Origin: Gloeobacterales cyanobacterium
Lineage (GTDB): Bacteria; Cyanobacteriota; Cyanobacteriia; Gloeobacterales; PMM-0068
Direction of reading: 5' to 3'
DNA: 64,000 bases
Assembly (NCBI GenBank): GCA_038245785.1
Contig: JBBRSB010000009.1
Span: 1-64,000 of the forward strand
Shown here: positions 10,609 through 24,111 of the stretch, piece after piece
How positions within the stretch are numbered: the first letter of the stretch is position 1
Layout: every line of letters starts with the position of its first letter
Translations under genes and position numbers: made by a program
Notes under the pieces: model-generated
Database searches by the model: none
Told to the model about the DNA's origin: nothing
Seen by the model: the letters and a program-made list of their open reading frames with translations, nothing else

Positions 10609-10860
10609 ACAACCTCAACCTTGAAGCTAATTTAACTAGTGCTCACATATTTTGATATCAGCAAAATGAAAGGCCCAATCGTAGCAAGCTGCAGGGTGTG
10701 CACAGGCGTTTCTAGACCAATCTTATTGAAAGTTACTAAGGATTTTCTTACCCCATAGCATCTCCAACCTCCATCTGCTGCAAATTAACTGGGGAATTGA
10801 ACCTCCGCCCATTAATCACCGTCCAAACTCCTGAAAGTGATGATTACGGAGTGTGTTTCG

Positions 10861-11160
10861 ATGAAAAAGTTAGTTTACGCTGCGCTTTGTGCCGCAACCC
10901 TCTTGATGCCTGCGGTCGCTTATGCTGGCCCCATTGTTCATCGTCAAGTCCATCAAGAGCACCGGATTTATCAAGGCGTAAAGAATGGCAGTATAAGTAG
11001 TAAAGAATATCGCAATTTACAACGTCGCGAGCAATCGATTGCAGCTCAGCGCTATCGGGATGTGCATGATGGCGGTGGGTTGACCCGTTATGAACGGCAG
11101 CGACTCAATAATCGTTTGAATAATGTTTCTCAGGCAATCTATCGCGATAAACATGACTAG
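10861..11160 (+). CDS. Small secreted Arg/Gln-rich helical repeat protein
   Basis: Signal peptide MKKLV...AYA; two G.[IL][ST]..E...L repeats; C-terminal KHD. Confidence 0.75.
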   Translation: MKKLVYAALCAATLLMPAVAYAGPIVHRQVHQEHRIYQGVKNGSISSKEYRNLQRREQSIAAQRYRDVHDGGGLTRYERQRLNNRLNNVSQAIYRDKHD

Positions 11161-16604: not shown

Positions 16605-17022
16605 GTACATTCCCTATGTTTGCTAGCGTAATCTGCTGGTGTGATTCTTGAAGTCAGAAAGTTGACTCTTTCCAATGGTAACTAGACGTTATTGCAGGAG
16701 CTGCCACCAATGAAATTTGGCTTGCGTGTAGAAAATCAGAACGGCAAGCACAGCTGCTCCCTAGATCAATAGATCATTAGCCCGTCAATTTCAGGTACTT
16801 TGGCCCTAATTGATTCAGATTACTGGAAAATACTTCAATTCCTTGCTCAAAAAAGATTCTTTGAGCGGGGAACAAAGTGTTTGCGCTTTTGTGGAACGTT
16901 GGGTGCAGCCATACTCTTTGCTTTGTTCGTCTTTGAAGCAATATCCATGCGCTTTGTCACGTACATAGGTCATGTTCGTTTTCCTAGGATGTTTGTAGTC
17001 AACTCCTTAGAGGCTCTATCTC

Positions 17023-17361
17023 ATGTCTATCAAATCAATCGCTGCTTTAGGTCTTGTCCTCACCCTTGGTCTTAGCACCGTAGCGAAGGCTGATGTAGTC
17101 CAAACCACCGTTGGCATTCAGCAATCTAGCCAGAAGCAATACGCTACAGGAGCTGGGGCTGAACAGAATGCTGTGAATGTTCAGGGAATGGATCAGTTGT
17201 CTGGAGTGTCCGGTGCTCGTCGCGGTGAGAATGTTCGCCAAACCACTGCTGGAGTTCAGACCAACGACCAAGTTCAAGAGTCCTATGGCCGTCGTGGTCG
17301 TCAGAATGCGGTCAATGTAAATGACCTCGTTCAAGACTCCTTTGTTAACTACGGAAGATAA
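17023..17361 (+). CDS. Secreted Q/N-rich repeat protein A
   Basis: Signal peptide ending AKA; four Q-x5-[QN]-x3-Q-x-[QS] units. Confidence 0.8.
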   Translation: MSIKSIAALGLVLTLGLSTVAKADVVQTTVGIQQSSQKQYATGAGAEQNAVNVQGMDQLSGVSGARRGENVRQTTAGVQTNDQVQESYGRRGRQNAVNVNDLVQDSFVNYGR

Positions 17362-17369
17362 GGGCCGAT

Positions 17370-17702
17370 ATGAAAAATGCTTTTTGGACGCTGATTATTA
17401 GTAGTTTGATCATGCTGCCAGCATCTGCCGGGACTCTGGAAATCAGTCCAGACATTCAGAATGCTATTTCTATCCAAAATGCTCAGCAAATTCAGCTAGG
17501 TTTTGGGGTAGACCGCCAAGAAGCAACCTTGGTGCAGCAGCAGGACCAGACGCAATTTCGCCGTGAACGCCCTCAAGGGTATCAACGGGAAATTCCCTTG
17601 AATGATGATATCCAGGTTAATCCCTCGATTCAGAATGCAATCAGTGTCCAAAATGGCCAACAGATTCAATTAGCGATCCCTAATTTCTGGCGCTCTTGGT
17701 AA
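17370..17702 (+). CDS. Secreted Q/N-rich repeat protein B
   Basis: Signal peptide ending ASA; three Q-x5-Q-x3-Q-x-Q units; 8 bp downstream of gene A. Confidence 0.8.
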   Translation: MKNAFWTLIISSLIMLPASAGTLEISPDIQNAISIQNAQQIQLGFGVDRQEATLVQQQDQTQFRRERPQGYQREIPLNDDIQVNPSIQNAISVQNGQQIQLAIPNFWRSW

Positions 17703-17723
17703 GGCATACCCTGTTCTTCGCTG

Positions 17724-17758
17724 AGTCCTCTCTTTGTGCACAAAGAGAGGACTTTTTT
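17724..17758 (+). terminator. Intrinsic terminator
   Basis: Perfect 30-bp palindrome AGTCCTCTCTTTGTG-CACAAAGAGAGGACT followed by a T run. Confidence 0.85.
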
Positions 17759-17765
17759 ACAGGGT

Positions 17766-18326
17766 TTATGTTTGATTGGAATATAGTCGGTCCAATCTCC
17801 AATTAACCGGATTCATCTGGATATAGCGACGAATATTGTTGAGGGCTTTGTCATTGCGAATGATGTGCTCATAATAATTGCGTTGCCAAACCGTGGTTCC
17901 GGGCGCATCCCGGATAATATGTATGCGTTTCGTTGAAACGGTTTTAAATGCCCCGATAAGACGCCCCAAGGATTTATGTTTTGGCATTTTTTCGGATGGT
18001 GTAACGGCATTTTCGGTATGCGTAGGGGCGATTTGCAAATCGCCCCTACCGGGTTGGTCGGTCAACACCAAAATCCCATGAAAATGGTTGGGCATAACCA
18101 CCCATGTATCCAAATGAACATATGGATATTGTTCAGATAACCATCGATAATTCGCTGCAACAATCATGCTATAGGGATTTAATTGCATCTCCCCATCCAT
18201 AATTTCGCCAAACAGGCATTCCCTTCGATAGGTGCAGAGGGTAATAAAATAAGCCCCTGCTGTAGAATAATCGTGTCCTTTCAGCCGGATAGAACGGCGA
18301 TAGTGTTTTTCAGGGTTATATTTCAT
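17766..18326 (-). CDS. REP-associated tyrosine transposase (RAYT, Y1 HUH)
   Basis: RRSIRL..DYS..GAYF.T.C, MPNHFHGI, WQRNYYEHIIR...YI..NP. Confidence 0.88.
   Translation of the reverse strand: MKYNPEKHYRRSIRLKGHDYSTAGAYFITLCTYRRECLFGEIMDGEMQLNPYSMIVAANYRWLSEQYPYVHLDTWVVMPNHFHGILVLTDQPGRGDLQIAPTHTENAVTPSEKMPKHKSLGRLIGAFKTVSTKRIHIIRDAPGTTVWQRNYYEHIIRNDKALNNIRRYIQMNPVNWRLDRLYSNQT
18022..18049. repeat. GTAG-type REP palindrome inside the RAYT gene
   Basis: GTAGGGGCGATTTG-CAAATCGCCCCTAC, perfect 28-bp palindrome. Confidence 0.8.
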
Positions 18327-20564: not shown

Positions 20565-21143
20565 ATGACAATTAGCCTGACTAAAGGAGCGAACATTTCG
20601 CTCAGCAAGCAAGCACCTGGGTTGACTAAGCTCCTCGTGGGGATGGGATGGGACGCCCGCTGCACCGATGGTAATGCCTTCGACTTAGATGCTTCTGCAT
20701 TTGTTCTTGGTGAGGATGGCAAAGTTCTCTCTGACAGACATCTCGTCTTTTATAGCAACCTCGAATCTCCTTGTGCTTCTGTCGTCCACAGCGGTGACAA
20801 CACCACAGGCGCAGGTGACGGAGATGATGAAGCGATTCGTATCCTCCTCTCAAAGCTTTCAGCCGAGGCAAAGAAAGTGGTCTTTACCGTCACTATTCAC
20901 GAAGCACTTGAGCGTAAGCAGAATTTTGGACAAGTTTCCGGCGCTTTCATACGCATTGTGAATGAGGACGGCGGGGCCGAACTGACCCGCTACGACCTCT
21001 CTGAAGACTACTCCACCGAAACCGCGATGATTCTTGGAGAGCTATATCGCAACGCAGAGGAATGGAAGTTTCGTGCGATCGGTTCAGGATTCAAGGAAGG
21101 ACTTGCTAGTCTCTGCCGGAGCATGGGGCTGGCCGTCGCCTAA
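20565..21143 (+). CDS. terD: TerD-family protein
   Basis: [29 protein letters not shown]...EWKF. Confidence 0.92.
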
Positions 21144-21172
21144 CGCCTAAGTACTCTCAAAAGGTTTTTCTC

Positions 21173-22231
21173 ATGTCGACAATCTTGTCTTTTTTCCGCT
21201 GGCCACTTCTTATTTCAGCGGTACTGCTGGTAGGCGTCACAGTTTGGGGTTGGACTGTAGGGCAAGGTTTTACAGCTGGGACATTGGTTGCTATGCTCGC
21301 CGTTTTGGAAGTGAGCCTCTCCTTTGACAATGCTGTCGTCAACGCTAAGGTACTCACACGGATGAATGAGCTTTGGCAAAAGCGCTTTCTCACTTGGGGT
21401 ATTTTTGTTGCTGTCTTTGGCATGCGTCTCGTGTTTCCTCTTGCAGTCGTTGCTATCGGAAGTGGTATCGGCCCAGTTGAGATATTGGACCTCGCGATCT
21501 CCAGGCCAGAGGAGTACGCGCACCACCTGGAATTGGCCCACCCATACATTTCTGTGTTTGGGGGAATGTTTCTCCTCATGGTGTTTCTCAAATTTGCTAT
21601 CGACGAATCAAAAGATCTCCATTGGCTCGGAGCGATTGAGTCCCAGCTTGCTCGCCTTGGCAAGTTAGAGGCTTCCGAGATAGCAATTGCAATGGGGCTT
21701 TTGGTTTTCTGTATCCAACTTGTAGAAGCATCAATGCGTACTGGCCTGCTCCTGGCAGGCATCGGTGGACTGGTTACCTACATCCTTGTCGATGCCATAG
21801 GAAACCTGCTTGATCAAGGGGAGGAGGACTCAGATAGCGGTGGTGCATTGGTTTCCTTTACTGCTAGGGCGGGCTTTGGTGCTTTCCTCTACTTGGAAGT
21901 GCTCGATGCTAGCTTCTCCTTCGATGGCACCATTGGGGCTTTCGCAGTCACTAGTAACATTTTCATCATCACTATCGGACTTGGCATTGGTGCTTTCTTC
22001 ATCCGTTCAATGACCCTCTGGCTATTGCAACAGGGCACTCTTGCTGAGTACATCTTTCTCGAACATGGTGCCCACTGGGCGATTGGGGTGCTCGCGGTGC
22101 TGATGCTCGTTGGAATCGCTCTTCCAATCCCAGAGGCGCTGACTGCCCTTATTGGCTTTTTCTTCATCGGGCTTTCAGTGATTTCCTCGATTCAATATCG
22201 TCGTAAGACAGTGGCTCCTGCTGCTGAATAG
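21173..22231 (+). CDS. DUF475 (TerC-like) membrane protein
   Basis: LEVSLSFDNAVVNA, LEVLDASFSFDG, LEHGAHWAI. Confidence 0.88.
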   Translation: MSTILSFFRWPLLISAVLLVGVTVWGWTVGQGFTAGTLVAMLAVLEVSLSFDNAVVNAKVLTRMNELWQKRFLTWGIFVAVFGMRLVFPLAVVAIGSGIGPVEILDLAISRPEEYAHHLELAHPYISVFGGMFLLMVFLKFAIDESKDLHWLGAIESQLARLGKLEASEIAIAMGLLVFCIQLVEASMRTGLLLAGIGGLVTYILVDAIGNLLDQGEEDSDSGGALVSFTARAGFGAFLYLEVLDASFSFDGTIGAFAVTSNIFIITIGLGIGAFFIRSMTLWLLQQGTLAEYIFLEHGAHWAIGVLAVLMLVGIALPIPEALTALIGFFFIGLSVISSIQYRRKTVAPAAE

Positions 22232-22269
22232 TTACAAGCCAAATCATTCATTATGGAGGATTAAATTAA

Positions 22270-22842
22270 ATGGGTATTACTCTTCAAAAAGGCCAGCGTA
22301 TCAGCTTAGATAAAGTTGCTCCGGGCCTAGAAAAGATTTTCATTGGGCTGGGCTGGGACGTCAGAGCCACCGATGGATCTAACGACTTCGACCTTGATGC
22401 AGCAGCCTTTATGCTAGGTGCAAACGAAAAATTACCGAAAGACGATTTTTTCATTTTCTATAACAACCTCAAGTCTCCTTGCGGCTCAGTTCAGCATACT
22501 GGAGACAACCTTACCGGAGATGGTGAGGGAGATGATGAGGTGATCAAATTAGACCTTACTAAGATTCCAGCCAATATTCAGAAAATTGTGATTACCGTAA
22601 CTATCCATGAAGCAGTTCAGCGTGGGCAAAATTTTGGTCAAGTTACTAATGCTTTCGTACGATTGGTAAACGACAGCACTGGGGCCGAGGTTCTACGTTA
22701 CGACCTTACGGAGGATTACTCCACCGAAACCTGTCTCATTATGGCAGAACTGTATCGCAAAGATGGCGAGTGGCGCTTCAATCCCGTTGCCGCTGGATAT
22801 AAGGACGGCCTCCAAGCACTCGTCAACCGTTACGCAAACTAG
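22270..22842 (+). CDS. terD: TerD-family protein
   Basis: GLGWD, FDLDA, GDNLTGDGEGDDE. Confidence 0.92.
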   Translation: MGITLQKGQRISLDKVAPGLEKIFIGLGWDVRATDGSNDFDLDAAAFMLGANEKLPKDDFFIFYNNLKSPCGSVQHTGDNLTGDGEGDDEVIKLDLTKIPANIQKIVITVTIHEAVQRGQNFGQVTNAFVRLVNDSTGAEVLRYDLTEDYSTETCLIMAELYRKDGEWRFNPVAAGYKDGLQALVNRYAN

Positions 22843-22855
22843 AAAGAGCACACCA

Positions 22856-23467
22856 ATGACTATCAATTTACAAAAAGGGCAACGCATTTCGCTTTCAAAA
22901 GAGGCTCCTGGCCTTAAAAAGATGATGTGTGGGCTAGGTTGGGATGTAGCGAAGCGTTCTGGAGGTGGTATGTTCGGGATGTTTGGGCAGACGCAAGATA
23001 TTGACCTCGATGCCTCTGTCATCCTGCTTGGAGCCAACGGAAAGCTCTACGGACGGGAACTTCCTGACACCCTGGTCTACTTCGGCAATCTCACACACAA
23101 GAGCGGCTCCATTCACCACCATGGCGATAACCTCACCGGAGATGGTGATGGCGACGACGAGTGTATCAGCGTCGATCTCCAGCGAGTCCCGGCCGATGTC
23201 CACAAGCTTGTCTTCACTGTCAATATCTACCAGTGCCGTGATCGGAACCAGAACTTCGGCATGATCTCAAACGCCTTCGTTCGTCTTGTCGATGAATCGA
23301 GTGGTAAAGAGTTAATGCGCTATGACCTCTCTGGTAAAGATTTCAGCAATGCTACGGGCCTTATCCTTGCTGAAATGTACCGCCATGGTGACGAGTGGAA
23401 GGTTGCTGCTATGGGCGAGGCCGTTGTTGTAGATGGTCTCTCCCAATTGGTTAGTAAGTATGTCTGA
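22856..23467 (+). CDS. TerD/TerZ-family protein
   Basis: ATG at 22856; GLGWD, GGGMFGMFG insert, GDNLTGDGDGDDE. Confidence 0.88.
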   Translation: MTINLQKGQRISLSKEAPGLKKMMCGLGWDVAKRSGGGMFGMFGQTQDIDLDASVILLGANGKLYGRELPDTLVYFGNLTHKSGSIHHHGDNLTGDGDGDDECISVDLQRVPADVHKLVFTVNIYQCRDRNQNFGMISNAFVRLVDESSGKELMRYDLSGKDFSNATGLILAEMYRHGDEWKVAAMGEAVVVDGLSQLVSKYV

Positions 23468-23478
23468 GGAAAAAATTC

Positions 23479-24111
23479 ATGGTCATTCAACTTGAAAAGA
23501 CTGGGGATTCTTGTCGGATTAACCTTAGCAAGGAAAAAATTCAGCAGATTCACGTCAACCTTAATTGGAATACGCACTCTTCTGTGACATCTAAGGGGCG
23601 TAACTGGCTGGAAAAATGGATTGCTGCACAGCCTGAGTCTGCCGATCTTGACCTCGGCTGCATGTACGAACTCAATCCAAAGGCAGGCCAATTTGGCTTA
23701 AATGAGAAAGGAGTTATTCAAGCTCTGGGTAATTCTTTTGGCAGCAAGACAAGTCCACCATTTGTGTTTCTTGACAAAGATGATCGCTCAGGGGCCTCAG
23801 CGGATGGAGAAAATCTCTATCTGCTTCGGCCCGAGGTGATCCGTCGCGTGCTTATCTATGCATTTGTCTATGAGGGGGGACAGGACTTCCGCCATTTCGG
23901 AGCATCCTTGAGTATTAGCCTCGGAGGTGTTGAGCAGGTCAATTTACTTTTGGACAATTCTCAGAGTGGTAGTACCTTCTGCGCAGCGGCCATGATCACT
24001 TACAGCGGTGACCAGGTTGAAATCTGTAAGGAGGCCCGCTACTTCAGTGGACACTCCGATTGTGACCGCTACTACGGATTTGGCTTTCAATGGACGGCAG
24101 GCAGAAAGTAG
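23479..24111 (+). CDS. TerA-like Ter-domain protein
   Basis: VNLNW, DLDLGC.YEL, QALG..FG, LDKDDRSG...GEN, C-terminal W.AG.K. Confidence 0.8.
   Translation: MVIQLEKTGDSCRINLSKEKIQQIHVNLNWNTHSSVTSKGRNWLEKWIAAQPESADLDLGCMYELNPKAGQFGLNEKGVIQALGNSFGSKTSPPFVFLDKDDRSGASADGENLYLLRPEVIRRVLIYAFVYEGGQDFRHFGASLSISLGGVEQVNLLLDNSQSGSTFCAAAMITYSGDQVEICKEARYFSGHSDCDRYYGFGFQWTAGRK

Follow-up and report, generated by a model that had tools for sequence, protein, structure and literature searches.

A candidate functional-amyloid gene cassette in Gloeobacterales cyanobacteria and its truncated second copy encoding two putatively secreted glutamine-ladder proteins

Background

Do two small adjacent genes in a Gloeobacterales genome encode the subunits of a secreted fibre, and does such a fibre belong to a known system? 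The genes, designated A and B, are located in a 64,000 bp stretch of DNA of a Gloeobacterales cyanobacterium (this whole stretch is called the window below). The original prediction considered them a two-gene system with a cyanobacterial fibre or matrix function. The features from which it started, two open reading frames (ORFs) of about 110 amino acids (aa) with Sec-type signals, no Cys, an 8 bp gap and a strong terminator, are all present (Table 1). Judged from the sequences, A and B are probably (at roughly 55%) exported subunits of a separate, curli-like cross-beta fibre or coat system, with A as the main subunit. A fibre or matrix role remains the best reading, and the proteins are cyanobacterial. 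The two genes do not stand alone, however: the window holds A-B as a truncated duplicate of a cassette of four genes, A-B-C-D, which the host genome also carries whole.

Conservation of the glutamine register

The register proposed for both proteins, Q-x5-[QN]-x3-Q-x-[QS], was found four times in mature A, a number reached by 0 of 100,000 shuffled sequences, and three times in mature B, where 126 of 100,000 shuffles reached at least three. This test is flattering, because the pattern was derived from these same proteins, and conservation in homologues, which had been set beforehand as a test, is the stronger one. The alignment of A, with 15 sequences at 31-81% identity to the window protein, has no invariant columns other than 12 Gln and 2 Gly, which all 15 share. 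These columns form two sets, offset by exactly 46 residues; in each set a first strand carries four Gln of the same parity and, after a Gly turn, a second strand carries two Gln spaced ten residues apart. The 12 register Gln of B (three strands of four) are likewise invariant in 11 of 11 sequences, as are prolines around the strands. Within the host genome, 5 of 56,825 six-frame segments contain the register at least twice, and all 5 are genes of this cassette.

The seven 13-residue segments quoted in the original prediction were all recovered in A and B. Its claim that both proteins use the same register stands as far as conservation in homologues is concerned, but the four motifs of A are of two alternating types, with invariance restricted to the outer Q-x9-Q in motifs 2 and 4. 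The linkers of A do contain Gly, as described, but are rich in Arg as well. For the role of nucleator or anchor assigned to B no direct support was found, and its aromatic, basic tail is not conserved: the Trp is limited to the closest copies (3 of 8), and all that recurs is a tail rich in Arg in general, which one orthologue lacks as well.

BLASTP gave no alignment between A and B; only profiles connect them. Profile comparison (hhalign) related A to B at 90% and A to C at 45-58%, scores that 0 of 30 column-shuffled controls reached, and the similarity between the B and C profiles was not significant. On these profiles B is a distant paralogue of A, and the A-B and A-C similarity exceeds what composition would give. 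C is a third ladder protein, with one arch and a long Arg/Asp/Gly tail; its strands are bracketed by invariant prolines.

For the window copies, dN/dS is 0.14-0.18 in four comparisons of A and 0.10-0.12 in three of B, calculated over 86 mature codons at a dS of about 1-1.4. Purifying selection at such a dS shows that the window copy is an old, maintained duplicate. These data also bear on the idea that the proteins are disordered secreted stress or storage proteins (a desiccation protectant or a nitrogen-rich reserve) with a Gln pattern that merely follows composition. The high Q/N/G/R content (Q+N is 20% in A and 25% in B), the low AlphaFold confidence and the charged low-complexity tail of C would agree with this. 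The position-specific invariance with an exact period, the similarity that is lost on column shuffling and the low dN/dS speak against it, and we consider it improbable.

The four-gene cassette and its distribution

The second A-B of the host genome lies on contig C90 and is followed by C. The end of C90 overlaps the start of contig C71 by 141 bases, and C71 starts with D, followed by a further secreted gene that is also present in genome G002. The two-gene system of the original prediction thus has to be replaced by a partial duplicate of a four-gene cassette, with C as third ladder protein and D as beta-sandwich protein. No enzyme, transporter or modifier gene is present within the cassette. 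A, B, C and D, and the wider cassette proteins, matched no Pfam or NCBIfam family above the cut-off.

A was found in 10 of 41 genomes: the host, both other genomes of the same genus and all 7 of family f3. None of the 4 genomes of family f2, from the same order, contained it, nor did any of the 27 other members of the class examined. B was present in the same 10 genomes (14 tested). The order A-B-C-D is found in the host genome and in 8 of the 9 A-positive relatives; in the ninth (G001) a contig end cuts the cassette at the first codons of D. G012 retains the order with a D that lacks the C-terminal domain. Gene dosage varies: G002 carries an extra solo A, as the host genome carries an extra A-B.

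By exact look-up, the family f3 proteins correspond to Gloeobacter glr1590, glr1591 and glr1593 and to proteins of Gloeobacterales metagenome-assembled genomes (MAGs); in G. violaceus the cassette is glr1590-glr1593. Clear orthologues of A, B or C outside the order were found in G057 (Leptolyngbya sp. FACHB-261), G061, G134, G217 (a Synechococcus sp. MAG) and G249, and a database search with the A profile returned 22 clusters. Three RNA runs from one study contain part of the G. violaceus locus, and in one of them (X1) a single contig reaches from A through B into the beginning of C. The contigs do not cover the phosphodiesterase gene upstream or the greater part of C and D; they cannot prove transcription or its level and give a weak indication that the operon is active.

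Two further observations concern the flanks of the cassette. A secreted type I phosphodiesterase/nucleotide pyrophosphatase of 700 aa precedes it in 6 of 7 family f3 genomes (L014-L019). Only in the genus of the window is D followed by a secreted protein of 232 aa with no Pfam match (L079, 708-1406, which is G000:C71; L022, 6148-6849); beyond it, the ORFs read as a pair resembling BlaI/M56 and a gene for an efflux adaptor.

Related cassettes in other cyanobacteria

D also marks related cassettes in other (crown) cyanobacteria, including Crocosphaera, Dolichospermum, Aphanizomenon, Nodularia, Snowella and Calothrix. At 20 of 27 loci found by means of D alone, a small signal-bearing Q/N-rich ORF was seen just upstream, compared with 54 of 5,069 background ORFs. 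One search with a closer alignment yielded 15 loci from a single pattern. In these cassettes A-like genes are often repeated in tandem, with 2, 3 or 4 near-identical copies (L037, L062 and L070), and they have the same two-repeat Gln/Gly plan. The complete genome G166 has two identical copies of the whole cassette (L037 and L042), with seven A-like matches in all. L070, from a record titled Chromatiaceae MAG, holds a cassette of cyanobacterial type in which four A-like genes are identical; the contig may be mis-binned.

Other genes recur downstream of D. At nine loci (L037, L044, L051, L054, L056, L065, L066, L068 and L073) a conserved gene encodes a protein that begins Q/N-rich and contains an amphipathic beta-hairpin as well as a coiled coil; it has no family match and no homologue in the host genome, and we can only speculate that its product is an outer-membrane anchor or pore. 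Several unicellular cyanobacteria have at this place a possible surface tether, a protein that is Q-rich, about 360-400 aa long and PEP-CTERM-like at its end (L060, 1841-2947; L061, L062, L063). A crown gene, X, was considered as counterpart of the N-terminal part of the Gloeobacterales D; at 6% by hhalign this was not established.

Structure predictions and proposed model

D was confidently predicted, at a predicted local distance difference test (pLDDT) score of 88.8, as an all-beta protein, with an immunoglobulin-like (Ig-like) sandwich behind a beta-rich N-terminal part. A Foldseek search with D gave only poor partial matches (template modelling (TM) score at most 0.29), and CsgC and CsgH were not among the 50 matches listed by a wide search. 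Searches of PDB sequences with the A and D profiles gave nothing significant. The nearest ESM Atlas clusters are 116-aa cyanobacterial proteins without Pfam family (0.92 and 0.91 for A, at most 0.80 for B), automatically named 'hypothetical' or 'filamentous hemagglutinin', and serve as leads only. Prediction of a four-copy A complex gave a median of 0.35 (mark 0.42, controls 0.00), which counts for neither side.

In the proposed model each 46-residue repeat of A would fold, after signal cleavage, into a long arch of strand, turn and strand, in whose interior the invariant Gln side chains, which share one face of each strand, would be packed. Two such arches may stack in register, leaving open edges at top and bottom to which further monomers could be added end to end, and the Gln columns would then form hydrogen-bonded ladders along the fibre. 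By analogy to the curlin and FapC repeats, these open edges suggest that A polymerises as a cross-beta fibre. A is proposed as the bulk subunit because duplication or amplification affects this gene. B, with three strands and fixed prolines at both ends, and C, with one arch and a long charged tail, could be minor subunits with a part in starting, capping or tethering the fibre. The Ig-like sandwich and beta-rich N-terminal part of D might act as a periplasmic chaperone or as a tip or adhesion subunit. The polymer would be on the surface or in the periplasm, and the copy in the window would probably add to the supply of A and B only, with C and D provided from the other locus. Polymer formation, its location and the role of B are what we infer from sequence features.

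Several observations weigh against this model. The AlphaFold2 prediction of the A monomer, made with 11 sequences, has four long strands at the motif positions at a pLDDT of 41 and was not counted as evidence, and a fold search with it matched no solved fold; the arch is for that reason derived from the sequence pattern. D is not obligatory, since it is missing in G122, L064 and L069 and truncated in G012, and at 7 of the 27 D loci no qualifying upstream ORF was seen within 1.5 kb. CsgG was found in 0 of 5 genomes (including the cassette-negative G003) and CsgF in 0 of 5, with the host genome (98% complete) among them, which leaves surface export unexplained. In the crown cassettes B has no counterpart, and the A-like proteins match the A profile at 86%, but at 45% after gap trimming and at 2.5% against a narrow A alignment. 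A crown protein with a Cys pair was considered as a candidate for C, which was not established (hhalign 2.9%; no detectable relation to A, B or C). The link between the Gloeobacterales cassette and the wider cyanobacterial cassettes is accordingly modest.

A further point concerns the faces of the A strands, both of which are conserved in the Gloeobacterales set (Gln and small residues versus Thr/Val/Ile in the first strand). Unlike the polar outer face of curli, two conserved faces make closed oligomers or bundled sheets possible. The main competing explanation is that the four proteins assemble together through exchange of beta-strands, giving a defined hetero-oligomer or a periplasmic or cell-wall lattice and no open-ended amyloid fibre. 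The fixed gene order with one each of B, C and D, the invariant prolines that bracket the strands of B and C, and the conservation of both A faces would all suit such an assembly, and the lack of a known outer-membrane pore in cassette or genome fits retention in the periplasm. Yet A-like genes have been amplified independently of the other cassette genes, and A-B or A alone has been kept under selection without C-D, for which a bulk polymer is better suited than a fixed stoichiometry; we regard the hetero-oligomer as a minority possibility. Somewhat less likely still, the Gln ladders might stabilise the monomers of small soluble beta-solenoid or beta-hairpin surface proteins (an adhesin, or proteins binding minerals, ice or polysaccharides), with D as a carbohydrate-binding partner.

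Organisation of the locus in the window

Table 1. Positions of genes A and B and associated features in the window
Feature	Position	Strand	Description
Gene A	17023..17361	+	112 aa; Sec export predicted; made up of two 46-residue repeats with two Gln-lined strands apiece; candidate main subunit
Predicted Sec signal peptide of A	17023..17091	+	23 aa, AxA site; from sequence, hydropathy and conserved cleavage context
A repeat 1	17101..17202	+	Invariant Q5, Q11, Q15, Q17, G21, Q26, Q36 (alignment numbering)
A repeat 2	17239..17340	+	Invariant Q51, Q57, Q61, Q63, G67, Q72, Q82; each +46 relative to repeat 1
Gene B	17370..17702	+	110 aa, predicted Sec-exported; three full Gln-register strands between invariant prolines; proposed minor subunit
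Predicted Sec signal peptide of B	17370..17429	+	20 aa; from sequence and hydropathy
B strands 1 and 2	17457..17555	+	Invariant Q11, Q17, Q21, Q23 and Q31, Q37, Q41, Q43; contain sub-threshold RHIM-like tetrad
B strand 3	17631..17669	+	Invariant Q69, Q75, Q79, Q81; near copy of strand 1
Intrinsic-terminator-like hairpin	17723..17758	+	14-bp stem, 4-nt loop, T run; closes the window copy where the full cassette has C and D
Conserved promoter-like region upstream of A	16880..17022	+	Duplicated along with gene A; putative function

In a crude hydropathy test, the N-termini of A and B both showed a hydrophobic core within the first 20 residues, followed by an AxA-type site. The perfect stem of the terminator (17723-17754) is followed by a T run; the region has a folding energy of -31.7 kcal/mol (z -6.2), equalled by 0 of 200 shuffles. 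This hairpin was not in the output of a simple terminator scan. The region upstream of A could be aligned in 5 of 5 genus copies, including both copies of the host genome and the solo A, with a mean column identity of 84% and invariant blocks. Within it a short box occurs twice, about 65 bases apart, and an invariant block lies near the start codon (window, 16880-17025; L001, 2040-2185; L021, L022, L023). The conserved DNA is likely a promoter or regulator site that was copied together with A.

The left neighbour of A-B is a divergent gene for an iron-containing alcohol dehydrogenase. On the right, a convergent REP-associated tyrosine transposase (IS200-like; 17766-18326, minus strand) lies directly past the terminator, at the place expected for C, and may be related to the loss of C-D from the window copy. 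Elsewhere in the window, a further small secreted protein without family match is encoded at 10837-11160 (plus strand), its repeats being rich in His/Arg/Gln and helical-looking, and a stress gene cluster with TerD-like and TerC-like genes was identified from the ORF translations at 20565-24111 (plus strand).

Significance

The well-defined Sec-dependent functional amyloid machines of diderm bacteria are limited to curli and Fap, neither of which is placed in cyanobacteria by the literature consulted, and a review (PMC4390875) describes many cyanobacterial appendages that are genetically and biochemically uncharacterised. The genes of the cassette are real and selected, and on their sequences the cassette is a good candidate for a new functional-amyloid family. 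Being under selection, made of repeats and marked by a gene for a globular protein, D, it provides named targets in G. violaceus and other cyanobacteria. If A forms a fibre, this would be a new cross-beta architecture of about 90 residues and a candidate structural basis for the formation of colonies and mats, and it would raise the question of export without a known pore.

A wider proposal, to which we give distinctly less than even odds, is that the cassette represents a third Sec-dependent functional-amyloid system of bacteria, one that evolved independently of curli and Fap and is native to cyanobacteria, ranging from Gloeobacterales, which lack thylakoids, to genera that form blooms and mats. 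A would supply the bulk subunit, tuned through gene dosage; B and C would act as nucleator and cap, and D as the system's own Ig-like chaperone or tip adhesin, with export proceeding without a CsgG- or FapF-type pore. Such a system might serve as scaffold of sheaths, colonies and mats, and would be a candidate for some of the uncharacterised thin fibres.

Comparison with known systems

The original prediction held the proteins to be distinct from curli, Fap and EbfG, and this was supported by the absence of a curlin repeat, the doubled period, the absence of a fap operon and the absence of a GG leader. No description of the cassette, and nothing on glr1590-glr1593, was found in the main texts of the open-access literature searched; proteomic tables in supplements may list the genes.

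Curli and FapC have inward Gln/Asn ladders and Gly turns, and their stacked imperfect repeats build the fibre, as described in PMC10192328, PMC12392863 and PMC12822426. A and B resemble curli subunits as small Cys-free Q/N-rich paralogues in tandem with Sec-type signals (by the hydropathy test), strand-arc-strand repeats with invariant Gln and Gly, and an adjoining small accessory gene of the beta-sandwich type. CsgC is a beta-sandwich protein. They differ in the period of 46 and the presence of only two repeats in A, and in strands of about 11-15 residues that start with Gln and have up to four Gln per face; the curlin repeat has a period of about 23 and two 7-residue N-x-psi-x-psi-x-Q strands (PMC10192328). 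The curlin pair of N-x-hydrophobic-x-hydrophobic-x-Q strands around an x-G-x-x arc is absent from A and B. Curlin_rpt (PF07012) matched 0 of 15 A and 0 of 11 B sequences even at an E-value of 10, and 0 of 5 genomes, with the E. coli control matched. Curli operons from cyanobacteria are not reported in the curli and amyloid survey literature consulted (PMC10192328, PMC12822426).

A and B might nevertheless be highly degenerate curlins, true homologues of CsgA and CsgB with D as CsgH or CsgC. Read by eye, Q15-Q26 and Q61-Q72 match the QX10Q kernel used for curlin mining (PMC10192328), the crown A-like proteins have a Gly turn followed by Asn as in curlins, two Gloeobacter A proteins carry the automatic UniRef name 'Curlin-associated protein', and some curli operons are described as only csgA/B plus csgH (PMC12822426). 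Next to the missing Curlin_rpt match and paired strand motif, the doubled period and the lack of CsgG and CsgF, where CsgG does occur (2 of 5 other cassette genomes) it is unlinked, more than 3 Mb from the D gene. We therefore consider this the least probable of the explanations.

B also shows a likeness to RHIM proteins. Its tetrad is RHIM-like, and 6 of 11 B sequences match Pfam RHIM weakly (12.4 bits, where the cut-off is 20; best E-value 0.041); the NCBI name of the G. violaceus B is 'RIP homotypic interaction motif-containing protein'. The site of action of RHIM and of bacterial amyloid signalling motifs is the cytoplasm, whereas B carries a predicted signal peptide and is not flanked by an NLR or effector gene. 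The automatic names (Curlin-associated, RHIM-containing) reflect a likeness seen by annotation models and are no description of the family.

With Fap the proteins share few long imperfect repeats with variable linkers, an inner Asn/Gln hydrogen-bond network, Gly turns, and (as proposed for A and B) major and minor subunits in one operon (PMC12392863, PMC12822426). The Fap repeats are described as Asn-dominated, nearly always three in number and arranged in a Greek-key layer, and the fapABCDEF operon of six genes as including the FapF pore and the FapD protease (PMC12392863, PMC12822426), in contrast to the Gln-dominated arches found here, of which A has two, B one and a half and C one. No fapABCDEF genes are present within 5 kb of A-B, and none of 10 relative loci has a pore or C39 protease gene beside the cassette. 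PF13557 matched 0 of 5 genomes, and no control genome either; we take this family to be linked to FapF.

Among the closest known systems are EbfG1-4 of Synechococcus elongatus, small secreted proteins from one operon with a role in the biofilm matrix, of which EbfG1-3 showed amyloid behaviour when assayed by C-DAG, a curli-dependent amyloid generator (PMC9981879). The cassette shares with them the small secreted proteins encoded in one operon. EbfG proteins use PteB, a C39 peptidase transporter, together with a double-glycine leader and a hotspot that is a short hexapeptide (PMC9981879), whereas A and B, with no peptidase transporter adjacent, combine Sec-type AxA signals with long Gln-ladder repeats.
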